This document shows positions 5,204 to 50,938 of a stretch of 64,000 nucleotides of DNA, in pieces. A program made the position numbers and the translations under genes. The stretch is from a bacterium HR34 (GTDB taxonomy: Bacteria > Patescibacteriota > Minisyncoccia > Minisyncoccales > HRBIN34). The stretch spans positions 1,965-65,964 of the forward strand of contig BEIK01000002.1 in the NCBI GenBank assembly GCA_002923395.1, in the 5' to 3' direction. Numbering within the stretch: position 1 is the first letter of the stretch; each line of letters begins with the position of its first letter. The notes under the pieces are model-generated. The model was not told where the DNA came from and searched no databases. It saw nothing but the letters and a program-made list of their open reading frames with translations.

Positions 5204-6852
5204 AACTTAAAAAACTTATTTTAAAAATTTTTATAATTGGTATAGTTGGGGTAATTGGTTTTGCTTTTTATATTTTACAAACCCAAACATTTTCAAAAGA
5301 TGAAGTTTTTCTTGAAATTTTAGCGCCAGAAAAAGTTGAGGCAGGAGACCAGATAAATTTTATAGTCAAAATTGAAAACAAAGGAACTACAAGGTTGGAT
5401 GATGCTTTTTTAACATTTTTATATCCTGAAAATTCTATAGTTGAGGGCAATGAATTTCTTAGAGAAACAATTAATTTGGATAGTTTATACCCTGGAGAAG
5501 AAAAATCTTTTAAGTTTGCAGCAAGGATATTCGGTAAGGAAAATGATTTTAAAGAAGCAAAAGCCATATTAAGATACAAGCCCAAAAATTTAAACTCAGA
5601 ATTCGAGTCGTCTACATCACACTTGTTGCAAATAGAAAGAGTGCCTATAAATCTGAGTATAAATATGCCATCTGTCATAGAGCCTCCTGCAAAAATTAAA
5701 TTAAATATAGATTATTTATCTAACATAGACCTTCCATTAGAAGATGTAACAATATTTTTGGAGTATCCTTCTGGTTTTGAATTTTTATCTTCTGAGCCTT
5801 CTTCAATAGAAATAAATCAATGGGACATACCAAAATTGGAAGACAGTGAAGGGGATAGAATTATTGTTGAAGGAAATATCTCAGGAGATATAGGCGAGGA
5901 GAAGGAATTTAAAGCAAAAATTGGAATTTGGAGAAATGGCCAGTTTGTTGTTTTAAAAGAGGCAGTTAAAAAAATAGTTTTAGAAAAGGTTGATTTAATT
6001 ATTTCTCAAACAGTTAACGGCCAAGAAAATTATATTGCTGAGCCAGGAGAACTTTTACACTATGTTATAAAATTTAAAAATATAGGAGAGAAAGATTTGT
6101 CTAATCTGTTTATGGTCGTTAATTTAGATACCCAAACACTTGATTTATCCACTCTTAAAGTTATAAACGGAAAATACAACAGCAAAGACAACTTTATTCT
6201 TTACGATAATTCCAGTTCTCCTTTGTTTTCTCTTTTGAAATCAGGGGAGGAAGGTGATGTTGAATTTTTTGTTAATGTAAAAGATATAAGTGATTTGAAA
6301 CCCGCTAATGATGTTACAATTTCAAATTCTGTTTTCATTTCAAAAACTAGAGAAGAACTTCATACAAAAATAAGATCAAAACCTATATTTACTGCTAACT
6401 TTGCATATGAAGATGAGGTTTTCGGTAACACGGGCCCAAATCCTCCACAAGTTCAAAAAGACACTACCTATACTCTTACTTGGAATATTAAAAACAAAAT
6501 AAACTCATTAAAAGATGTTAGAATAACAGCAACTTTACCAGAAATTGTTTCTGTAAATACAGATAAAGTTTTCCCAGAAGAGGAAAAGCAAAATTTTGTT
6601 TTAGATGAGAAAGAGAGAAAAATATCTTTTACAATAGAAGAAATATCTCCTAATGAAGAAAAATCTATTGCTTTTCAAGTAAAGGTTTTGCCGCAAAAAG
6701 AAGAAGACCTTTCTAACTTAACAATTTTGAAAGATATAAGATTGTCAGCTTTTGACGAATGGATACAAGATAACATAGAATACAAATTTGAAGATTTAAC
6801 AATACCAATACAAAACAACAACAGCGGAGGTCAAAATAACAATAATAATTAA
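5200..6852 (+). CDS. Hypothetical membrane-anchored, probably surface-exposed beta-rich protein
   Basis: N-terminal TM helix (ILKIFIIGIVGVIGFAFYIL), about 500 aa of repetitive beta-strand-like segments, Asn-rich tail; ATGA overlap with recO. Confidence 0.55.
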   Translation: MKLKKLILKIFIIGIVGVIGFAFYILQTQTFSKDEVFLEILAPEKVEAGDQINFIVKIENKGTTRLDDAFLTFLYPENSIVEGNEFLRETINLDSLYPGEEKSFKFAARIFGKENDFKEAKAILRYKPKNLNSEFESSTSHLLQIERVPINLSINMPSVIEPPAKIKLNIDYLSNIDLPLEDVTIFLEYPSGFEFLSSEPSSIEINQWDIPKLEDSEGDRIIVEGNISGDIGEEKEFKAKIGIWRNGQFVVLKEAVKKIVLEKVDLIISQTVNGQENYIAEPGELLHYVIKFKNIGEKDLSNLFMVVNLDTQTLDLSTLKVINGKYNSKDNFILYDNSSSPLFSLLKSGEEGDVEFFVNVKDISDLKPANDVTISNSVFISKTREELHTKIRSKPIFTANFAYEDEVFGNTGPNPPQVQKDTTYTLTWNIKNKINSLKDVRITATLPEIVSVNTDKVFPEEEKQNFVLDEKERKISFTIEEISPNEEKSIAFQVKVLPQKEEDLSNLTILKDIRLSAFDEWIQDNIEYKFEDLTIPIQNNNSGGQNNNNN

Positions 6853-8246: not shown

Positions 8247-9524
8247 ATGAACTCAATTCAAATAAAAAAATTTCAAAATGGTTTAACTCTTTTGTTAGTT
8301 CCTAAGAAAAACACATTATCTGCAACTGTTTCTGTTTTTGTAAAAACAGGCTCTGAATATGAGACAAAAGAATCGAACGGAATATCGCATTTTTTAGAAC
8401 ATATGCTTTTCAAAGGCACAAAAAAGAGAAGAACACCTCTTGATATTTTTACTTTCACAGATTCTATTGGCGCTAATTTTAACGCCGCAACATCAAACCA
8501 ATATACATTTTATTATATTAAAACTCCTTACCATAACATAGAGCAGGCTTTTGATATAGTTTCAGATATTTATTTAAATTCCATTTTCCCCACTCAAGAA
8601 GTTGAAAAAGAGAGAAGTGTAATTATTGAAGAAATAAACACTTATTCTGACAACCCAATGATGAACATGCCCAACCTTTTTATAAATTGTTTGTATGGCG
8701 ATCAGCCGGCTGGTTGGGATATTGCCGGCACAAAACAAACAGTATCAAATATAAAAAGAGAAGATATTATAAGTTATATGGAAAGTCAGTATAAAGCAAG
8801 GAATACAATAGTTGTTGTGGCTGGTAATGTTAATTCTCAAGAAGTTTTAAGGTTAGTAGAAAAATATTTTAAAAACATAAGAATAGGCGAGTCAAAAGAA
8901 AAAAACAAAGTCATTATAAAATATGATGGCCCAAAAGTTTTAATTAAAGAGAGCAACACAGACCAGGTTCATTTGGCTTTGGGAGGCAATGGTTTTAGTA
9001 TGAAAGACAAAGAAAGATTTGCGCAAGATATTATAACAAGTATTTTAGGAGGTATGAGTAGCGCAAGATTGTTTTTGAAAATCAGGGAAGAAATGGGCGC
9101 TGCTTATTATATTTGGTCTGATTCTGATTTCTTTTTAGATCATGGATACATTTTTACCCAAACAGGAGTTAACATAGATAAAACAAAACAAGTTATAAAA
9201 GAAATAGTAAATCAATATAAACTTTTAACATTAGAACCAATTCCAAGCAAAGAATTAAAAAAAGTTAAGGGTTATTTGGAAGGGAAAATGACTCTATCTT
9301 TGGAAGATTCTGAGGCTTTAGCAAATTTTTATGGAGTGCAGTATTGTCTTAAAGATAGTGTTTTTAGACCAAAAGAATTGGTAGAAATTATTAATAAAAT
9401 TACTCCGCGTGATATAATAATAACATCAAGAAAATTATTTAATACTAAAAATTTATATCTTGCTATAACTGGCCCTTTTGAAAAAGAAGAGGAAAAAGAA
9501 TTTATTAACCTTTTAAAAATATGA
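8247..9524 (+). CDS. M16 family (pitrilysin-like) zinc peptidase
   Basis: Inverted zinc motif HFLEH followed by MLFKGT; length typical of the family. Confidence 0.8.
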   Translation: MNSIQIKKFQNGLTLLLVPKKNTLSATVSVFVKTGSEYETKESNGISHFLEHMLFKGTKKRRTPLDIFTFTDSIGANFNAATSNQYTFYYIKTPYHNIEQAFDIVSDIYLNSIFPTQEVEKERSVIIEEINTYSDNPMMNMPNLFINCLYGDQPAGWDIAGTKQTVSNIKREDIISYMESQYKARNTIVVVAGNVNSQEVLRLVEKYFKNIRIGESKEKNKVIIKYDGPKVLIKESNTDQVHLALGGNGFSMKDKERFAQDIITSILGGMSSARLFLKIREEMGAAYYIWSDSDFFLDHGYIFTQTGVNIDKTKQVIKEIVNQYKLLTLEPIPSKELKKVKGYLEGKMTLSLEDSEALANFYGVQYCLKDSVFRPKELVEIINKITPRDIIITSRKLFNTKNLYLAITGPFEKEEEKEFINLLKI

Positions 9525-11507: not shown

Positions 11508-12035
11508 ATGAAAAAAGTATTTCTTTTTCTTAAAGAGACTTTTTCGAAAAGAAAATACTCTGCTACTTTTGTATTTACATCTTTTGTTGTTTTTCTTTTT
11601 TTTCTTTGGACGCCGAATTTAAGTTTTATTTTTGGTTTTCTTTCTTCGCCTGAATATACTCTACCTGATAAAATCTCTTTCTTTTTTGAGTATTTTAAAG
11701 TTTTTCCAAGTAGTTTTTCAACATTATCTCAAATTACAACAATTATAATATCTTTGCTTGTTGGTTTGAACAGCGCTTTAATAGTTAGATTTTTAGATAG
11801 TTTAAGAAAAATAGATAGGACCTGCTCAGTTAAAACAGGTGTTGGCTTTTTTGCTGGATTTTTAGGAATTGGTTGTTCTTCTTGTGGCTCATTTGTTTTA
11901 TCTTTAATCTTTGGAGCAGGAGTATCTTCAAGTATATTGGCTAATTTGCCGTTCTCAGGTCAGGAGTTTGCTTTTGCTTCCATTGCTTTGTTGTCGTTTT
12001 CTGTGATTTCTTTTTACAAAAAGTTAAGTTTTTAA
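11508..12035 (+). CDS. Hypothetical 4-TM membrane protein with intramembrane CxxC (GIGCSSCG)
   Basis: Hydrophobic 175-aa ORF 6 nt after the DsbA-like gene; three Cys (TCSV, CSSC); family not recognised. Confidence 0.5.
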   Translation: MKKVFLFLKETFSKRKYSATFVFTSFVVFLFFLWTPNLSFIFGFLSSPEYTLPDKISFFFEYFKVFPSSFSTLSQITTIIISLLVGLNSALIVRFLDSLRKIDRTCSVKTGVGFFAGFLGIGCSSCGSFVLSLIFGAGVSSSILANLPFSGQEFAFASIALLSFSVISFYKKLSF

Positions 12036-12039
12036 AACT

Positions 12040-12987
12040 ATGCAAAAAGAAAAAATATACGATGTTTTAATAGTTGGAGGAGGGCCTGCCGGAGTTGCAG
12101 CAGGAATTTACTGCGCAAGGAAAAAATTAGATACAATTTTGATTACTGATAATTTTGGTGGACAGTCTATTGTTTCTAATAAAATAGAAAACTGGATAGG
12201 TGAGATAGAAATATCAGGTTATGAACTCGCAAAAAAATTAGAGGCACATTTAAGACGTTTTTCAGATTCAATTGATATTATTACAGGCGACTTGGTTTTA
12301 AAAATAGAAAAGGAAGATTTAAGCGATAAGACAATTTTTATTTCTAAAACTCAAAAAGGAGATGTTTTTAAGAGTAAAACAGTAATAGTTTGCAGTGGTG
12401 GAAGAAGGAGAAAATTAGAGGTTCCCGGTGAAAAAAAATTTGAAGGAAAAGGTGTTTTTTATTGCGCAACATGCGACGCTCCTTTAATGAAAGATAAAAA
12501 AGTTTTGGTTGTTGGTGGTGGCAATGCTGGTTTAGAGGCTGCTCTTGAACTTTTTTCTTTTGCAAAAGAAGTTTATATAGCAGAAAGATCCGATAAATTA
12601 AAAGGAGATCCTATAACAAGAGAAAAGGTTTTGGCAAACAAAAAACTAAAAGAAATTTTTTATAATACAGAAGTCCAAGAAATTAAAGGTAATAAGTTTG
12701 TTGAAAGTGTTTTGCTCAAAAACAACAAAACAGGAGAAAGTAAAGAATTTCAAGTAGACGGAGTTTTTGTGGAAATAGGGTCTGTGCCAAATTCTGAGAT
12801 AATAGATTTCGTTGAAAAAAATAAATACGGCGAGATAATTGTTGATTCAAAATACGGCACAACATCTTTTCCAGGTATTTTTGCAGCAGGCGATGTTACA
12901 GATGATCCTTTCAAGCAAAATAATATTGCAGCTGGTGATGCCATAAAATGCGCCCTCTCTGCTTTTAATTATCTGCAAAAAGAGTAA
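12040..12987 (+). CDS. trxB: Thioredoxin-disulfide reductase
   Basis: GGGPAG FAD motif, redox-active CATCD, GGGNAGLEAA NADPH motif, AAGDV. Confidence 0.9.
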   Translation: MQKEKIYDVLIVGGGPAGVAAGIYCARKKLDTILITDNFGGQSIVSNKIENWIGEIEISGYELAKKLEAHLRRFSDSIDIITGDLVLKIEKEDLSDKTIFISKTQKGDVFKSKTVIVCSGGRRRKLEVPGEKKFEGKGVFYCATCDAPLMKDKKVLVVGGGNAGLEAALELFSFAKEVYIAERSDKLKGDPITREKVLANKKLKEIFYNTEVQEIKGNKFVESVLLKNNKTGESKEFQVDGVFVEIGSVPNSEIIDFVEKNKYGEIIVDSKYGTTSFPGIFAAGDVTDDPFKQNNIAAGDAIKCALSAFNYLQKE

Positions 12988-22979: not shown

Positions 22980-23050
22980 TGCGGGGTGGACCAGTAGTAG
23001 GTCGCCAGTCTCATAAGCTGGAGGCCCAGGTGCAATTCCTGGCCCCGCAA
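22980..23050 (+). tRNA. tRNA with CAU anticodon (Met; initiator, elongator or Ile2 identity unresolved)
   Basis: Hand-folded cloverleaf: acceptor TGCGGGG/CCCCGCA, D stem GACC/GGTC (A11:U24), anticodon loop CTCATAA, T arm CCAGG-TGCAATT-CCTGG; no encoded CCA. Confidence 0.85.
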
Positions 23051-23057
23051 CAAATTT

Positions 23058-23109: not shown

Positions 23110-23182
23110 GCCGGCGTAGCTCAGTGGTTAGAGCAGGGGCATCATAAGCCCAAGGTCGCGGGTTCAAATCCTGCCGCCGGCA
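23110..23182 (+). tRNA. Second tRNA with CAU anticodon (Met or Ile2)
   Basis: Acceptor GCCGGCG/CGCCGGC, D arm GCTC-AGTGGTTA-GAGC, anticodon loop ATCATAA, T arm GCGGG-TTCAAAT-CCTGC; no encoded CCA. Confidence 0.88.
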
Positions 23183-23185
23183 CTA

Positions 23186-23207
23186 GATTTGAACCCGACA
23201 GAGGGGA
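23186..23207 (+). repeat. tRNA-trailer motif: inverted copy of the preceding T arm plus GAACCCGACAGAGGGG
   Basis: GATTTGAACCCG is the exact reverse complement of T-arm bases 23159-23170; GAACCCGACAGAGGGG resembles the start of the 124-nt module at 23893, 24363, 24526 and 24689. Confidence 0.6.
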
Positions 23208-23223
23208 TAATAAACAAATTTTT

Positions 23224-23790
23224 ATGTTAATTTATTTCATAACTTCTAATTCTAAAAAATTTAATGAAGTTAAAGAGTTTTTTAAAGATGTAAAAAATAT
23301 TCAGATAAAGAGAATAAATTTAGATATTCCCGAGATTCAATCAGTTGAGGTTAAAGAAATTGTAAAATTCAAGATTAATTACGTTCTTAAAAATTATAAT
23401 TTTAAAAATTTTTTAGTAGAAGATACAGGTTTTTATATAAAGTGTTTAAATTATTTGCCAGGTCCTTTTATAAAATGGTTCTTACTTTCAATCCGCTCTA
23501 AGGGTTTATATGAGATTTGCAATTTTTACAGAAATTATAAAGCAGAAGTAAAAATAGCTCTCGGATTAAGATTAAAAAACAAAAGTTATATTTTCAAAGG
23601 TAGCGTTAAAGGAAGAGTTGTAAAGCCAAAGAAGCGTTTATCTAACAGTGAGATATGGTGGGATAATATTTTTATGCCGGAAGGTTTTAGTAGAACTTTT
23701 AGTGAAATGAGTTCAGAAGAAAAAAATTTAATAAGTCACAGAGGAAAGGCATTAAGAAAATTGAAAAATTTTTTAATAAAAATAAAATAA
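23224..23790 (+). CDS. rdgB: Non-canonical purine NTP pyrophosphatase (RdgB/HAM1 family)
   Basis: ITSNSKKFNEV, EDTG, ISHRGKAL motifs of the Ham1 fold. Confidence 0.8.
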   Translation: MLIYFITSNSKKFNEVKEFFKDVKNIQIKRINLDIPEIQSVEVKEIVKFKINYVLKNYNFKNFLVEDTGFYIKCLNYLPGPFIKWFLLSIRSKGLYEICNFYRNYKAEVKIALGLRLKNKSYIFKGSVKGRVVKPKKRLSNSEIWWDNIFMPEGFSRTFSEMSSEEKNLISHRGKALRKLKNFLIKIK

Positions 23791-23810
23791 TAGAATATAT
23801 GGCGGCCGTA

Positions 23811-23883
23811 GCTTAAAGGTAAAGCATCAGGCTGTGGCCCTGAGGACTACGGGTTCGAGTCCCGTCGGCCGCCCAAGGCGAAA
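23811..23883 (+). tRNA. tRNA-His (GUG) with encoded G-1
   Basis: G-1 + GCGGCCG/CGGCCGC + C73, anticodon arm TCAGG-CTGTGGC-CCTGA, T arm ACGGG-TTCGAGT-CCCGT. Confidence 0.93.
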
Positions 23884-23888
23884 ACCCC

Positions 23889-24012
23889 ACAGAGGGGGTC
23901 GGGGAGATTGGGTATCTCCCCGTGAAGGAAAATAGCTCCGACTTTATGTCGGAGCGCAAGAAACCATGGGTTTCTTGGGAGCGAAGCGACGGGTTCGAGT
24001 CCCGTCGGCCGC
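23889..24012 (+). repeat. 124-nt GC-rich hairpin module, copy A (tRNA-His-linked); candidate structured ncRNA or miniature mobile element
   Basis: 121/124 identical to copies at 24359-24482 and 24522-24645; contains three 8-bp inverted repeats and ends in GGGTTCGAGTCC. Confidence 0.85.
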
Positions 24013-24025
24013 CCAGCAGAAAGAT
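23999..24025 (+). repeat. Duplicated 3' end of tRNA-His (T arm + acceptor 3' strand + CCA-position bases), orphan fragment
   Basis: ACGGGTTCGAGTCCCGTCGGCCGCCCA is identical to 23859-23885, 140 nt upstream. Confidence 0.9.
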
Positions 24026-24164
24026 TCCATATAAGGCGTTAGGGAGACCTTGATTTAGGTCTAGGAACAGGTTGAATATCTTCTTCCGTATGACAACAGG
24101 CAGATCAATCATTATATAGGTAGGTCCAGTCATATTCCAGTATACACAAAAAATGGAAGGGTGC

Positions 24165-24250
24165 CGGAGTGGTCTAACGGAACGGCCTGGAGAGCCGTGC
24201 CTCCTTGTGGGGCTCGTGGGTTCAAATCCCACCCCTTCCGCATAATTGTC
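24165..24250 (+). tRNA. tRNA-Ser (GGA), long variable arm
   Basis: Acceptor GGAAGGG/CCCTTCC, anticodon arm ACGGC-CTGGAGA-GCCGT, long variable arm, T arm GTGGG-TTCAAAT-CCCAC. Confidence 0.9.
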
Positions 24251-24257
24251 CCCGTAG

Positions 24258-24330
24258 TTCAACAGGATAGAACGAGTCCCTCCTAAGGACTAAATGGGGG
24301 TTCGAGTCCTCCCGGGGACACCGAGCAAAG
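24258..24330 (+). tRNA. tRNA-Arg (CCU)
   Basis: Acceptor GTCCCCG/CGGGGAC, anticodon arm AGTCC-CTCCTAA-GGACT, T arm GGGGG-TTCGAGT-CCTCC. Confidence 0.92.
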
Positions 24331-24358
24331 CGAGGTGGCAACCGGAGACGAGAACCCC

Positions 24359-24482
24359 ACAGAGGGGGTCGGGGAGATTGGGTATCTCCCCGTGAAGGAA
24401 AATAGCTCCGACATTATGTCGGAGCGCAAGAAACCGTGGGTTTCTTGGGAGCGAAGCGACGGGTTCGAGTCCTCCCGGGGAC
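24359..24482 (+). repeat. 124-nt hairpin module, copy B (tRNA-Arg-linked)
   Basis: Same core as 23889-24012. Hairpins: 24381-88/24394-401, 24415-22/24428-35, 24438-45/24449-56. Confidence 0.85.
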
Positions 24483-24521: not shown

Positions 24522-24645
24522 ACAGAGGGGGTCGGGGAGATTGGGTATCTCCCCGTGAAGGAAAATAGCTCCGACATTATGTCGGAGCGCAAGAAACCGT
24601 GGGTTTCTTGGGAGCGAAGCGACGGGTTCGAGTCCTCCCGGGGAC
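24522..24645 (+). repeat. 124-nt hairpin module, copy C
   Basis: Identical to copy B, offset by 163 nt. Confidence 0.85.
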
Positions 24646-24771
24646 ACCGAGCAAAGCGAGGTGGCAACCGGAGACGAGAACCCCACAGAGGGGGTCAAGA
24701 AAATTTAGATACAAGATATGAATAGCAAATTACAAGTTTAATATTGAAAAAACCAAATTTAAAAATTATTA

Positions 24772-24815: not shown

Positions 24816-24890
24816 GGACCCGTGGTGTAGCCCGGTTAACACGCCTCCCTGTCACGGAGGAGATCGAGGGTTCAAATCCCTTCGGGTCCG
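24816..24890 (+). tRNA. tRNA-Asp (GUC)
   Basis: Acceptor GGACCCG/CGGGTCC, anticodon arm CCTCC-CTGTCAC-GGAGG, T arm GAGGG-TTCAAAT-CCCTT. Confidence 0.92.
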
Positions 24891-24916
24891 CGGTAATTAA
24901 AATATAAATTAAAAAT

Positions 24917-30364: not shown

Positions 30365-30979
30365 ATGTTAATTTCTCAATTAATTAGCGACCCAATTTTA
30401 TTTTTTATAATTTTAATATCCCTTATAATAGCCTTTAGCGTTCACGAGTACTTCCACGCTTTCGCCGCCTACAGGCTTGGTGATCCTACTGCCAAGTTTC
30501 AAGGCAGGTTAACTCTTAATCCAATATCTCACATAGATCCATTAGGTTTTATTTTGCTTTTGTTTTTAGGTTTTGGTTGGGCAAAGCCAACCCCTGTTAA
30601 TCCTTTTAACTTTTCGAATAAAAGGTGGGGAAGTTTGTATGTTTCAATTGCAGGACCTTTGTCTAACTTTGGTATGGCAATTTTTGCGGGTTTAATTTTG
30701 CATTTTGGTTTCTTAACTTCAGAGTTGTCAATTAATTTTTTAGTCTCGTTTGTATATATAAATGTTTTGTTAGGAGTTTTTAATCTTTTGCCTTTTGCTC
30801 CTTTAGATGGTTTTCATATTTTTACATCTTTGTTTAGGCCAGAAAGATTTAGCCATTATACATTGCTCCTTGCAAATCCTTTTATGGTTATAATAGCGGT
30901 TTTTTTAATGATGTGGGTTATGATAGATTACGTTGTTAAACCAATAACAAGAATTTTAACAGGAGATCTACTGTTTTAG
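30365..30979 (+). CDS. Site-2 protease family (M50) membrane metalloprotease
   Basis: HEYFH zinc motif and NLLPFAPLDG. Confidence 0.8.
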   Translation: MLISQLISDPILFFIILISLIIAFSVHEYFHAFAAYRLGDPTAKFQGRLTLNPISHIDPLGFILLLFLGFGWAKPTPVNPFNFSNKRWGSLYVSIAGPLSNFGMAIFAGLILHFGFLTSELSINFLVSFVYINVLLGVFNLLPFAPLDGFHIFTSLFRPERFSHYTLLLANPFMVIIAVFLMMWVMIDYVVKPITRILTGDLLF

Positions 30980-31021
30980 AATTGTAAATTTGTTTTATAA
31001 AACTAGAACAATTCAAATAAT

Positions 31022-31050
31022 TTGACAATTTTTTTTCAATATACTAAATT
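31022..31050 (+). promoter_or_regulatory. Candidate promoter of the str operon
   Basis: TTGACA, 17-nt spacer, TAAATT; about 45 nt upstream of rpsL. Confidence 0.3.
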
Positions 31051-31095
31051 TATAACTATTATTAAAAGTAAGCAAATATTGAAGTAATTTAATTT

Positions 31096-31518
31096 ATGCC
31101 AACAATAAATCAGTTAATTAAAAAACCAAGGAAGCAAAAAACAAAGAGAACAAAGTCTCCTGCCTTGAAGTTTGGTTTTAATACTTTAAAAAACAAAAAA
31201 GTTTATCACCCATCTCCTTTTAAAAGAGGAGTTTGTATTAAAGTGTTTACAACAACACCTAAAAAACCAAACTCTGCTTTGAGGAAGGTTGCAAGAGTGA
31301 AACTTACTAATGGAATGGAAGTAACAGCTTACATTCCTGGTATTGGCCACAATCTACAGGAGCACTCAGTTGTTTTGATAAGAGGTGGTAGAGTTAAAGA
31401 TTTGCCAGGTGTAAGATATTATGTGGTTAGAGGTGTTTTAGATGCAGCAGGAGTTGAGGGTAGAAAACAAGAAAGGTCTAAATATGGAGTTAAAAAGCCT
31501 AAAGATGAAAATAAATAA
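31096..31518 (+). CDS. rpsL: 30S ribosomal protein S12
   Basis: [12 protein letters not shown]..., [39 protein letters not shown]. Confidence 0.97.
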
Positions 31519-31523
31519 AAAAT

Positions 31524-31973
31524 ATGAAGGTAGAAATCAAACCAGATCCTAAATACAATAGTGTTTTAGTTGAGAAATTTGTAAATCAAATAATGAAAAA
31601 TGGAAAAAAGTCAGTTGCAAGAAAAATAGTTTATAATTGTTTTGAAATAATTAAAAATACGACAAAAAAAGATCCTTTAGAAGTTTTTGAAAAGGCAATC
31701 AAAAATGTTGGTCCTTTGGTTGAGGTGAGGCCAAAAAGAATTGGTGGTGCTACTTATCAGGTTCCTTTTCCTGTTTCTGAAAAAAGAAGGATAAGTTTGG
31801 CTATGAAATGGATAAGAGATATTGCAAGAAAAAAGAAAGGAAAAGGGATGGCTGAAAAATTAGCGCAAGAAATAATAGATGCTTCCAACAATATAGGCGC
31901 CGCTGTTAAAAAGAAAGAAGATACTCACAAAATGGCAGAAGCAAACAAGGCTTTTGCTCATTTTGCTTCATAA
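31524..31973 (+). CDS. rpsG: 30S ribosomal protein S7
   Basis: [13 protein letters not shown]..., [16 protein letters not shown]; str-operon order. Confidence 0.96.
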
Positions 31974-31989
31974 AAAATAAAAAAAACTT

Positions 31990-34098
31990 ATGGCAAGACT
32001 ATATCCAATAGAAAGATATAGAAATATAGGAATTATAGCGCACATAGATGCGGGTAAAACAACGACTACCGAAAGAATTTTATTTTACACAGGCATTTCC
32101 CATAAAATAGGTGAGGTTCACGAGGGTGAAGCGATTATGGACTGGATGGAACAAGAAAAAGAAAGAGGTATAACAATTACAGCCGCTGCCACCACATGTT
32201 TCTGGATACCAACTTATGAAAAAGAAAAATTAAAAGAAAAAGAATACAGAATAAACATTATAGACACTCCAGGCCACATAGATTTTACAGTTGAAGTACA
32301 AAGATCTCTGAGAGTTTTAGACGGTGCTGTTGTTATTTTTGATGGTGTTGCTGGTGTTGAACCTCAATCTGAAACTGTTTGGCGTCAAGCTGATAAATAT
32401 ATGGTGCCCAGAATATGTTTTGCCAATAAAATGGATAGAATGGGGGCATCTTTTGATTATGTTTTAGATTCGATAAGAAAGAAGTTAACAAACAACGCTA
32501 TTCCTATACAAATGCCAATAGGTCAAGAAAGCGATTTTAAGGGAGTTATAGATTTATTAAGAATGAAGGCATATTATTTTGATGGTGATTTTGGTCAAAT
32601 TGTTAGAGAAGAAGAAATACCTCCAAATTTAGTTGAAAAAGCAAAACAATTAAGATATCAGACGATTGAAAGAATTATATCAGAAGATGATCAGTTGATG
32701 GAGGATTATTTAAACGGAAAAGATATACCTCTTGAAAAAATTAAGCAGGTTTTGAGAAAATCAGTTTTAAGTTATAAATTAGTTCCTGTATTATGTGGAG
32801 CTTCTCTGCAAAATAAAGGTGTTCAACTTTTACTCGATGCTATTTGTGACTATTTGCCATCTCCAAAAGATCTTCCACCTATTAAAGGTATAAATCCAAA
32901 AACCAATAAGGAGGAAGTAAGGCATCCAGATGACTCCGAGCCATTTTGCGCTCTTGCCTTTAAAATTGCAGCCGATCCTTATGTTGGTACTTTAACATAT
33001 TTTAGGGTTTACTCAGGTTCATTGAAAAAGGGTTCTTATGTTTTAAACTCAACGACAGGAGAAAAAGAAAGAATTGGAAGAATTTTAAGAATGCATGCTA
33101 ATCAAAGAGAGGATGTTGATGAAGTGTTTGCAGGAGATTTAGCAGCAACTGTTGGTTTGAAAAATACTTTAACAGGCCACACTTTATGCGACGAAAACCA
33201 TCCTATTGTTTTAGAAAAAATTACTTTCCCAGAGCCTGTTATTTCAGTAAGAATAGAACCAAAAACAAAAGCAGATCAGGAGAAATTGTCTATAGCACTT
33301 AAAAAGTTAGCTGAAGAAGACCCGACTTTTAGAGTTAAAACTGATTTAGAAACAGGGGATACTTTAATATCTGGAATGGGAGAGTTGCATTTGGAAATTA
33401 TTGTTGACAGACTAAAGAGAGAATTTAAAGTGGAAGCCAACATAGGTAAACCCCAGGTTGCTTATAAAGAAACAATTTTAGGTAAGGCTGAGGCTGAAGG
33501 AAAATATATAAGGCAATCTGGTGGAAGGGGTCAGTATGGTCATGTTTGGTTAAGGGTTGAACCCTTAGAAAGAGGCAAGGGTTTGGAATTTGTTGATGAG
33601 ATTAAAGGAGGTATTATACCGCAAGAGTTTATTCCTGCAGTAGAAAAAGGTGTGAAAGAGGCTGCTGAAAAGGGAATTTTGGCAGGTTATCCCGTGGTAG
33701 ACTTAAAGGTTACTTTATACGATGGTTCTTTTCACGAGGTTGATTCTTCAGAATTTGCTTTTAAAATAGCTTCATCTATAGCTCTTCAAGAGGCCTGCAA
33801 GAAAGCAAAACCTATTTTACTGGAACCAATAATGAAATTGGAAGTTATTACACCTTCCGAATTTTTTGGTGATGTTATAGGAGATTTGAATGCAAGAAGA
33901 GGAAAGATAGAGGATACAGAAGATAAAGATAACTTAAAGATTATTAAGGCAAAAGTTCCTTTAGCTGAAATGTTTGGTTATGCAACATCTCTAAGATCTT
34001 TAACTCAAGGAAGAGGTAATTTTAATATGGAATTTTCTCACTATGAACCAGTTCCCCAGAACATTGCCCAAGAAATAATAGAAGGTAAAAGGAAATAA
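31990..34098 (+). CDS. fusA: Elongation factor G
   Basis: [33 protein letters not shown]; 702 aa. Confidence 0.97.
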
Positions 34099-34111: not shown

Positions 34112-34417
34112 ATGGATTTTGAAAATTTTAAAAAAATTATAGAACACGACAAAGATGCCAAGTTTATATTTATCGAAGACGGAAAACCATCTTTTGTAAT
34201 TATAAGTTTTGAGAAATATCTAAGTTTAATATCCAATGGAAATAAAATGGTTTTACAAGATACACAACAGAGCAAAAATTTAGATATTATTAAGAAAGGT
34301 TTTTTTGGAAACAATAATTATGATTTGTCGCAAAAATTAAACAAAGAACTTGATTTGTTAAAAGATGATAGTGAAAGTAATAAAGAAATTGTTGACATAG
34401 AGCATTTTTCAATTTAA
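34112..34417 (+). CDS. Hypothetical protein; N-terminus weakly resembles the Phd/YefM antitoxin fold
   Basis: 101-aa ORF inserted between fusA and tuf; DGKPSFVIISFEKYLSL pattern; no partner toxin ORF. Confidence 0.35.
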   Translation: MDFENFKKIIEHDKDAKFIFIEDGKPSFVIISFEKYLSLISNGNKMVLQDTQQSKNLDIIKKGFFGNNNYDLSQKLNKELDLLKDDSESNKEIVDIEHFSI

Positions 34418-50090: not shown

Positions 50091-50111
50091 CAAATTATAC
50101 ACATTAACAAT

Positions 50112-50258
50112 ATGGCAAGATTTGTTGATATAGAAACTCCATATTCGGGATATTTAGGGAATAATGAAGAAGAAATCAAACGGAATCTTCTTTATGCTAG
50201 AATGTGCACAAGAGGCAGTTTGTTGCATATAGAAATACCTTCATTCTCGAGAACATGA
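50112..50258 (+). pseudogene. Truncated ORF fragment (48 codons); resembles the N-terminus of phage/plasmid-borne nucleoside-deoxyribosyltransferase-like (DUF4406-type) proteins
   Basis: MARFVDIETPYSGY...NLLYARMCTRGSLL... ends prematurely; family recall is from memory and tentative. Confidence 0.3.
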
Positions 50259-50321
50259 GAATATTATTTAGGATAATTTCTTTTATATTTTTATTTTTCC
50301 TTTAAAGTAGTCAAGAAAATT

Positions 50322-50756
50322 TTACTTTAAAAATTGAGTAAATTCTTTCATTTCTTTTTGGTATAGTTTTATTTTTTCTTCTCTTTTTTCTTCCGGGATT
50401 ACTGATAATATTTCATTTCCTATAGATGCTAATTTAAATCCATAACCGATCGGGTTTATACCAAGCATAACATCATAATCTACTTTTCTATTCTCGTAAA
50501 AACATACTTAAAAGATTTATGACCATCTTTTGATATTCTAAAACTTTTCTTTCAACATCTTTTCTTACTCATACCAATTTTCAATCAAAGGTTCTTCTGG
50601 TTTTATTAATATCCATGGTCCTATCTGTCTGTCTTTTTCAAAATGTCCTTCACAAGATTGCACTGTTCTTATTTTATAAGCATTGAGCATTATAACAGTT
50701 TCTTTAATATTTTCTTCTATTTTCATACCCAGATTATCTCTTAGATTTTCTACCAT
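50322..50756 (-). pseudogene. Disrupted gene of unknown function (63-codon head plus out-of-frame 53-codon tail)
   Basis: The ORF at 50565-50756 ends in TAA, followed in-frame by EKMLKEKF then another stop. A further open segment VDYDVMLGINPIGYGF...QFLK (50322-50483) lies on the same strand in another frame. Confidence 0.4.
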
Positions 50757-50938
50757 ATTTTTTATTTTGTTTAATTATTCTTGAGCTTTCTCATTCCATT
50801 CTTCTTTTACTACTCTTTCTTTAGGATTGTATTTTTCTCCTTCCATAATGTTATAATATTTGTTGATTTTTATAATTTTATAATGTAACCTTTATTTATT
50901 AAATTTTATTATAAACCTTTTCTTAAATCAAAACTTTT

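Follow-up and report, generated by a model that had tools for sequence, protein, structure and literature searches.

Integrating phages can carry a replacement 3′ end of their target gene, the lambdoid phages in icd being an example of integration at the 3′ end of a gene. Correia/NEMIS, RUP, ERIC and REP/REPIN are bacterial miniature repeat elements which are co-transcribed and fold into hairpins, and some 3′ external transcribed spacers of tRNAs have a function of their own. Guided systems such as group II introns, IS110 and TnpB do not, to our knowledge, make target duplications of 24–92 nt. Likewise, we know of no transposase, integrase or guided system that combines a variable, gene-restoring duplication, an arm complementary to the start of the duplicated segment and a structured core. 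The bridge RNA of IS110 is a guide-bearing RNA of a mobile element (PMC11208160). Integrative elements of tRNA genes are described in PMC9897764 (citing Williams, 2002) as being flanked by direct repeats of the tRNA 3′ part which start in the T arm.

The locus compared here with these systems lies in a window of 64,000 nucleotides, i.e., the whole stretch of DNA that was analyzed. It originates from a metagenome-assembled genome (bacterium HR34) and represents a chromosome segment with about 30% G+C and almost all genes, including a ribosomal-protein operon, on the plus strand. The Ham1 protein of the window is identical to GBD33837.1 (bacterium HR34), and the named relatives with the closest elongation factor G (EF-G) are Parcubacteria, Nealsonbacteria and Patescibacteria. 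A short motif in the trailer of a tRNA-Met(CAU) gene of this window probably forms, at a likelihood of roughly 0.7, the left end of an insertion element that is small, structured and non-autonomous and whose copies would arise by template switching. It is regarded as an element terminus or footprint and not as a tRNA processing signal because the core of the element is absent in a sister strain and present at tRNA-Phe and fusA. The tRNA cluster and the features at the Met site are as follows.

22980–23051: tRNA-Met, tRNA cluster
23110–23183, plus strand: tRNA-Met(CAU), second copy (ARAGORN; Rfam tRNA, 68 bits)
23186–23197, plus strand: solo target-complementary arm (anti-T-arm), 12/12 complementary to 23159–23170
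23198–23206, plus strand: solo remnant of the element 5′ box (ACAGAGGGG), from the sequence; compare the full boxes CA[AC]AGAG[AG]GGGTC
23191, 23882 (AAACCCC, 1 mismatch), 24352, 24515 and 24678, all plus strand: motif matches with at most 2 mismatches
23224–23790: Ham1 gene, between tRNA-Met(CAU) and tRNA-His
23802–23874, plus strand: tRNA-His(GUG), intact (ARAGORN; Rfam tRNA model)
24155–24241: tRNA-Ser, tRNA cluster
24248–24322, plus strand: tRNA-Arg(CCU), intact (ARAGORN; Rfam tRNA model)
24816–24891: tRNA-Asp, tRNA cluster
From 24917: LemA gene, 3′ border of the tRNA cluster

The earlier note on this DNA had described the trailer GATTTGAACCCG (23186–23197) as the exact reverse complement of CGGGTTCAAATC (23159–23170), the T arm of tRNA-Met(CAU), and re-reading of the sequence confirmed this. 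A survey of 60-nt trailers at unrelated loci (about 215 tRNAs) showed maximum exact complements to the T arm of 3–7 nt, which makes Met(CAU) an outlier with 12 nt in the window and 11 nt in the sister strain. The motif GAACCCNACAGAGGGG matches the window 5 times against 0.04 expected (at most 2 mismatches; 0 of 100 shuffles reach 5), these matches being non-independent, as the two internal Arg copies derive from a 163-nt tandem duplication and the His copy from the Arg version. All 5 adjoin a tRNA 3′ end or its copy, and a single unrelated match with at most 2 mismatches occurred in 859 kb of other loci; the association with tRNA 3′ ends that had been claimed is thus upheld. The secondary coordinates 23893, 24363, 24526 and 24689 lie about 11 nt too far to the right, and the last Arg repeat (24624–24696) closes with arm and 5′ box. 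The motif proved to be a composite: GAACCC(N) ends the arm, and ACAGAGGGG(GTC) opens the conserved core as its 5′ box. At the Met site, the core and the second target copy are missing, and just the solo arm and the 5′ box remnant are present. The proposed minimal unit of tRNA 3′ end, spacer, anti-T arm and ACAGAGGGG was incomplete in that it missed the core and the direct repeat.

A full copy is ordered as target 3′ segment S, arm against the start of S, 5′ box CAMAGAGRGGGTC, hairpins H1–H3, 3′ box GAGCGAAGCGAC and a second S. One such copy follows tRNA-His and two in tandem follow tRNA-Arg, each succeeded by a second tRNA 3′ part.

23849–23875, plus strand: His direct repeat copy 1, 27 nt, T-stem 5′ strand through 2 nt beyond the discriminator (repeat search)
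23876–23988, plus strand: His insertion of 113 nt with Arg-type arm (AGGCGAAAACCCC), 5′ box, H1–H3 and 3′ box; absent from the sister strain
23895–23991, plus strand: His core match, covariance model, 121.5 bits
23989–24015, plus strand: His direct repeat copy 2 (displaced tRNA-His 3′ fragment), 27 nt
24298–24370, plus strand: Arg repeat copy 1, 73 nt, comprising T loop to tRNA end, trailer, arm and 5′ box through GGGGGTC
24342–24358, plus strand: Arg arm CCGGAGACGAGAACCCC, inside Arg repeat copy 1
24371–24460, plus strand: core remainder of Arg unit 1 (H1, H2, H3, GAGCGAAGCGAC); absent from the sister strain
24365–24461, plus strand: core match of Arg unit 1, covariance model, 121.9 bits
24461–24533, plus strand: Arg repeat copy 2, 73 nt, 100% identical
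24534–24623, plus strand: core remainder of Arg unit 2; core match at 24528–24624
24624–24696, plus strand: Arg repeat copy 3, with arm and 5′ box at its end, then native flank AAGAAAATTT

The element is hence small, non-coding and multicopy, with 3 full copies within 0.8 kb and 2 solos in the window, where no source of the core was detected elsewhere by blastn. In the Arg array, a 163-nt unit (73-nt segment plus 90 nt of hairpins) occurs twice without any difference and is followed by a third 73-nt segment; as these units are 100% identical in a metagenome-assembled genome, the exact copy number could depend on the assembly. Over its leftmost 25 nt, the His insertion matches the Arg trailer of the sister strain with 92% identity, and the Arg-type arm of this copy indicates that the arm is not regenerated at every insertion. 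The element is oriented in sense within tRNA or fusA transcription units, and plus-strand promoter-like sites are located upstream of the first tRNA-Met and of tRNA-His.

The sister strain is represented by a contig from an independent assembly (L002), which is 99.3 and 99.0% identical to the window over 10.7 and 9.6 kb on either side. It carries the same six tRNAs and no hairpin module, all three full copies being missing. Its His site is empty, and its Arg trailer consists of the same 73 nt with 2 substitutions, stops at the arm plus ACAGAGGGGGTC with no core and passes directly to the flank AAGAAAATTT common to both strains. At Met, the trailer sequence is GATTTGAACCCCAAAGAGGGG, with an arm that is 11/12 complementary. 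Differences between the two sequences are concentrated at 23197–24154 and in the Arg trailer, and amount to about 0.1% right after the array. This demonstrates an insertion polymorphism between strains of about 99% identity, although the empty sites of the sister strain could equally have arisen by loss through recombination between the repeats. Of the readings offered in the earlier note, that of an element terminus or recombination footprint is the one which prevailed: the full copies are absent from a strain of about 99% identity, the Met and Arg sites of this strain hold the terminal arm and 5′ box only, and homologues with covarying hairpins occur in two other lineages.

Further differences between the two strains were recorded. 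The His-Ser spacer (24017–24154; 10652–10807 in L002) is about 15% diverged (21 mismatches, 4 indels) in strains that are otherwise about 99% identical, and the divergent tract extends from the Met solo (23197) to this spacer, with 2 further substitutions in the Arg trailer (24348, 24357). The first approximately 33 nt of the native His trailer align without gaps to the left end of the element (24/37), and judged by this similarity the trailer may be an older, decayed element copy. The His-Ser spacer was also considered as a decayed full copy and dismissed, given that about 33 nt align and the remainder is not significant. A second divergence peak at 30500–33000, with 24 differences in 31000–31500, surrounds rpsL and rpsG and reaches into fusA, which suggests mosaic recombination between the strains.

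The core comprises 97 nt with three hairpins (H1, H2 and H3) and ends in GAGCGAAGCGAC at its 3′ side. In about 840 kb, the sole full-length sequence match (blastn E 0.001, nhmmer E 0.018) was an insert at tRNA-Phe (L099), which is homologous to the module of the window in the blocks GGGGTCGGG, CCCGTGAAGGAAA, GAACCGTNGGTTCTT and GGAGCGAAGCGACG and is situated exactly between the end of tRNA-Phe and its duplicate. When the window copies and this insert were combined into a covariance model of the 97-nt core, a previously unseen copy was detected in two JGI samples (L130 and L131) with 72.5 bits and an E-value of 1.5e-17. The host of L130 is a Patescibacterium with an EF-G 79% identical to that of the window, and the LepA proteins of the window and L099 share only 46% identity. 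In all four distinct sequences, the pairs of H1 and H3 are kept without exception, and six pairs change on both sides; this covariation was matched by 0 of 500 shuffles and collapsed in slid controls. H2 is Watson–Crick paired in the window and features the same tandem G-A/A-G in L099 and L130. A conserved core with compensatory hairpin changes is thereby shown for three independent lineages in about 1 Mb of sampled sequence. The boxes CA[AC]AGAG[AG]GGGTC and GAGCGAAGCGAC are confined to element copies across 1.05 Mb. In L099, folding favors the plus strand (−29.7 vs. −20.9 kcal/mol), and the G-U pairs also favor the sense strand of the host gene. Chance similarity or an assembly artifact, for which the metagenomic origin of the window and the complete identity of the Arg units might be quoted, is extremely improbable in the face of 5 motif matches where 0.04 are expected, of a core recovered independently in JGI, NCBI and ENA assemblies (with two samples for L130/L131) and of an architecture that recurs at different targets. 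For the element as such this explanation is excluded, and the copy number of the Arg array alone is assembly-dependent.

Searches in other resources returned no described relative. No Rfam 15 family matched the modules beyond chance level, even at E-values up to 10; scanning IMG/VR and JGI metagenomes for exact core segments yielded nothing, and neither did blastn of the module against phage and plasmid collections. A single viral match to a core segment turned out to be a look-alike of a ribosome-binding site, and a weak match of the model in another locus (L104) had neither a tRNA nor a repeat nearby. A spurious 125-aa open reading frame across the Arg array had no match among 5.8 billion proteins. 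Relatives found via EF-G do not keep the tRNA cluster, no tRNAs were found near the Ham1 homologues of relatives, and it was among the EF-G relatives that the fusA copy was recovered. No supporting match was obtained for tmRNA or permuted tmRNA, RNase P or SRP fragments and known self-cleaving ribozymes; the same applied to type III toxin-antitoxin repeats, CRISPR-like arrays, integron attC, IS200/605 palindrome-associated elements and the GTTC targeting of IS91. For all of these candidates, the defining genes are absent. Among the families that could be searched, the element thus resembles no RNA or mobile-element family described so far.

The insert of L099 had come to light in a search for tRNA 3′ ends duplicated at short range, which gave four cases among 120 unrelated background loci from a metagenome scan with a tRNA-Arg pattern. 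Other inserts of 64–143 nt lie between duplicated tRNA 3′ ends at 8866–8995 of L011, 7343–7510 of L053 and about 6066–6145 (minus strand) of L093; the duplicated ends in this set belong to tRNA-Arg CCU (24-nt repeat) and tRNA-Thr (16-nt repeat), and L011 and L053 additionally possess a significant anti-T-arm. As homologues of the core, these inserts had to be rejected: the covariance model R2 detects none of them, and they are accordingly treated as analogous.

The copy in L130 is located at a protein-coding gene. The last 78 nt of fusA, the stop codon and 13 further bases are duplicated at 12025–12116 and 12226–12317, giving two repeats of 92 nt with 100% identity. The arm AAATTCCATTGTAAA complements the opening 15 nt of the repeat at 15/15 positions, and the last 6 nt of repeat 1 (AAATTC) are at the same time part of the arm. 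It is followed by TCAAAGAG and the core, the GAGCGAAGCGAC of which abuts repeat 2. In the fold of this element, a stem of at least 15 bp, in which the arm pairs with the beginning of repeat 2, encloses the three hairpins (z = −5.6). The layout of arm and direct repeat is thus shown at a target other than a tRNA. The complementarity of the arm at the individual sites is as follows.

fusA of L130: 15/15
Met solo of the window: 12/12 (p 0.009 vs. shuffles)
tRNA-Phe of L099: 13/16 (p 0.006 vs. shuffles)
L011, unrelated insert: significant (p 0.006 vs. shuffles)
Arg of the window: about 10/13 (p about 0.1 vs. shuffles)
His of the window: none, not significant

Judged by sequence, the arm is the complement of the start of whichever segment is duplicated; at tRNAs it appears as an anti-T-arm because S starts in the T arm there. 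The earlier interpretation as an anti-T-arm per se had to be widened accordingly to an anti-target arm, which at fusA is complementary to fusA. Pairing of GAACCC with GGGTTC of the upstream T arm, which had been stated for each case, holds for Met (12/12), is trivial at His (6–7 nt) and marginal at Arg (p about 0.1 vs. shuffles). Both sides of the insertions carry direct repeats of the target 3′ part, with lengths of 27 (His), 73 (Arg), about 53 (L099) and 92 nt (L130). Owing to the duplication of S, each gene hit by an insertion (tRNA-His, tRNA-Arg, tRNA-Phe or fusA) retains its intact 3′ end on the upstream side of the element. At His the repeat begins on the 5′ strand of the T stem, in L011 within the T loop, in L099 with the last T-loop base and at fusA in coding sequence; at the tRNAs, its end lies 2 to 46 nt beyond the gene. 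The arms of L099 and L011 extend 6–7 nt deeper into the T loop than the second repeat does. The element end at the core-proximal start of the repeat shares GGGTTCGAGTCC with the T arms of His and Arg, and GGAGG-like bases provide a short homology at the left His junction.

The 3′ box (23980–23986, 24450–24456 and 24613–24619) contains GCGAAGC, and d(GCGAAGC) is an unusually stable DNA mini-hairpin; by analogy, this hints at a possible single-stranded DNA stage. CGAAG motifs recur in the unrelated insert of L011. Furthermore, H2 together with TATTTTCC scores as an intrinsic terminator on the minus strand (23935–23955, 24405–24425 and 24568–24588), which, according to this prediction, could block antisense transcription into the tRNA cluster.

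A function for the host was considered as well. The element resembles tRNA 3′ external transcribed spacers in its position in the tRNA trailer and its co-transcription with the tRNA, and arm plus hairpin might compete with the cloverleaf, set the 3′ processing site or protect downstream RNA. Forcing the arm onto the T arm leaves the Met precursor just 1.2 kcal/mol less stable than the cloverleaf (−38.3 compared to −39.5 kcal/mol). Arm and box persist in both strains at Met and Arg, and the CCCC-loop-GGGG hairpin still pairs at the Arg site of the sister strain through U-G. Nevertheless, neither L099 nor the native His trailer preserves this hairpin, and 4 of the 7 tRNAs of the window are devoid of the motif. 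At Met, 2 of 16 motif positions differ between the two strains despite 99% identity elsewhere. A protein gene is also followed by this 5′ box and core, with an arm directed against fusA, and a T-loop-anchored search for the motif in 185,579 species genomes gave one chance-level match in a gammaproteobacterium. In contrast to tRNA 3′ spacers, the element is not confined to tRNAs, is gained or lost as a unit and duplicates the tRNA 3′ part. No intrinsic terminator was called at the motif on the plus strand; the motif is strain-variable and missing from other tRNAs. A tRNA-specific processing or folding signal, one of the roles initially proposed for the trailer, is consequently very improbable.

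Integrative elements at gene 3′ ends provide another comparison, as they likewise leave the target gene intact, generate a direct repeat of its 3′ part, are polymorphic between strains and can form tandem units. The repeats could accordingly represent attL and attR, with the core being a leftover of an integrase element or a minimal element mobilized in trans and the array resulting from accretion. Tandem units are present at Arg, the target receives a replacement 3′ end as in integrating phages, and direct repeats of the tRNA 3′ part from the T arm are termed the classic signature of integration in PMC9897764 (citing Williams, 2002). However, the cargo is about 110 nt instead of kilobases, and the literature found on insertions of tRNA fragments concerns standard kilobase-scale elements only. 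No tyrosine or serine recombinase gene was detected in or beside the inserts, which measure 113–143 nt and have Ham1, LemA, Hsp20, PrsW, fusA and tuf as neighbors. Instead of a fixed crossover in a symmetric tRNA stem-loop, the tRNA repeats begin at differing points between the 5′ strand of the T stem and the last T-loop base, the fusA repeat begins in plain coding sequence, and the repeat end varies from +2 to +46 nt. A circle of the His type crossing into the Arg T loop would give a chimeric tRNA, and none was seen. Moreover, integrative elements lack the covarying three-hairpin core and the arm complementary to the repeat start, and the hairpin covariation and G-U pairs indicate a single-stranded structure and not protein sites on a duplex. 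The recurrence of the same 97-nt unit in hosts with 46% LepA identity is also unlike random deletion remnants. Altogether, an origin from attachment sites is doubtful, with rather small odds.

Regarding size (100–160 nt), lack of coding capacity, a surrounding inverted repeat, location in transcription units, copy number and strain variability, the element is similar to Correia/NEMIS, RUP, ERIC and REP/REPIN. It differs from them by the fact that one inverted-repeat arm is host target sequence, by its preference for gene 3′ ends and by having no known parent insertion sequence; no insertion sequence with the ends of this element was found. Terminal inverted repeats as borne by miniature inverted-repeat elements (MITEs) are lacking, the right arm being target sequence that is different at every site. 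Likewise, the target-site duplications are neither short nor fixed: they comprise 24, 27, about 53, 73 and 92 nt, compared to a fixed 2–9 nt in Correia/NEMIS-type repeats. With no recombinase, no element-borne terminal repeats and no fixed duplication, the element falls outside the definitions of both integrative elements and miniature repeats.

The connection of a target-complementary segment to a structured scaffold is reminiscent of the EBS of group II introns, IS110 bridge RNA and TnpB/IscB omega RNA, and, as with the guide of TnpB omega RNA, the target sequence abuts the scaffold 3′ end. An RNA- or DNA-guided insertion, following a logic analogous to the EBS-IBS pairing of group II introns, IS110 bridge RNAs and TnpB omega RNAs, would imply that an inherited guide arm pairs with the target and that a recombinase, nuclease or reverse transcriptase acting in trans uses the core as scaffold. 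At four targets, the arm is indeed specific to its target and extends across the junction (fusA, 15/15; Met, 12/12; tRNA-Phe, 13/16), and the core combines conserved single-stranded joiners with covarying stems in the manner of protein-bound scaffolds. The His copy, with an Arg-type arm at a near-cognate site sharing GGGTTCGAGTCC, resembles an off-target event. On the other hand, no candidate protein is encoded near any copy; neither a cognate enzyme gene adjoining the copies nor homology to a known scaffold was found at the examined loci, no Rfam scaffold family matches, and target duplications of 24–92 nt are not known from these guided systems. The 6-nt microhomology between repeat and arm in L130 is better explained by copying from the target than by a pre-existing guide. 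In contrast to that of guide RNAs, the arm may be copied and not inherited. A guided mechanism is therefore considered unlikely.

The preferred explanation, template switching of a non-autonomous element, would proceed in four steps. Initially, a nascent strand would copy the gene to a point past its end and then leave the template at a short homology. In the third step, the arm and core would be copied from another element copy if such a donor exists, while at a new target copy-back on the displaced target strand up to its 5′ end would create the arm. Finally, synthesis would return to the start of S and copy S again. As copy-back would run to the 5′ end of the displaced strand, this would account for an arm that ends exactly at the repeat start in L130. 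Once in place, units between direct repeats of 24–92 nt might multiply, disappear or return through ordinary recombination; exchange between the flanking repeats would produce the two-unit Arg array, the empty sites of the sister strain and re-insertion at solos. The solos at Met and Arg would be 5′-terminal remnants that later offer homology for re-insertion, a role which the 73-nt homology could play at Arg. The RNA or single-stranded DNA of the element could fold into a stem closed by the arm and the start of S and bearing the three hairpins.

This copy-choice route would reproduce every arrangement seen, and the variation in repeat length (24–92 nt) and start speaks against a fixed-stagger transposase and a fixed-crossover integrase. 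Still, it would require three or more switches, and it leaves unexplained why the solos stop 9–12 nt into the core and why the arm overreaches by 6–7 nt in L099 and L011. Neither a circle or single-stranded DNA intermediate nor a partner enzyme or autonomous relative was seen at the examined loci. As a tentative alternative with the odds against it, the copies might belong to an undescribed class of tiny mobile elements, in which a hairpin scaffold and arm-directed insertion at the 3′ ends of highly expressed genes would be combined with catalysis by a trans-acting enzyme or by the nucleic acid; duplication of the gene 3′ end would then be inherent in a novel chemistry of insertion.

Either origin, a programmable guide or the footprint of polymerase copy-back, would be new. 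If such elements are widespread in Patescibacteria or other uncultivated lineages, they would represent unrecognized strain-level variation at tRNA and translation-factor loci, as hinted at by three lineages in about 1 Mb and two or three unrelated inserts of the same layout. Besides, the element is a source of pseudo-tRNA fragments which confuse annotation.

Some additional features of these loci were observed. In L130, genes for an rve-type integrase and a serine recombinase (837–2963) adjoin a tRNA-Arg/Ser/Ser cluster about 9 kb from the fusA element, a link between them and the element not having been established. In the window, a 101-aa open reading frame at 34112–34417 lies between fusA and tuf, the intergenic position which the element occupies in L130; the corresponding product of the sister strain has no recorded Pfam family. 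About 840 nt following tRNA-Gly(CCC) (50092–50930) are rich in A+T and contain no open reading frame of at least 90 aa; by its composition, this may be decayed sequence beside a tRNA. In two further loci (L108 and L039), a hammerhead-like CTGATGAGGTCCGGAAAAGGACCGAGGAAGG is found in the trailer, 45–90 nt after tRNA-Arg(CCU).
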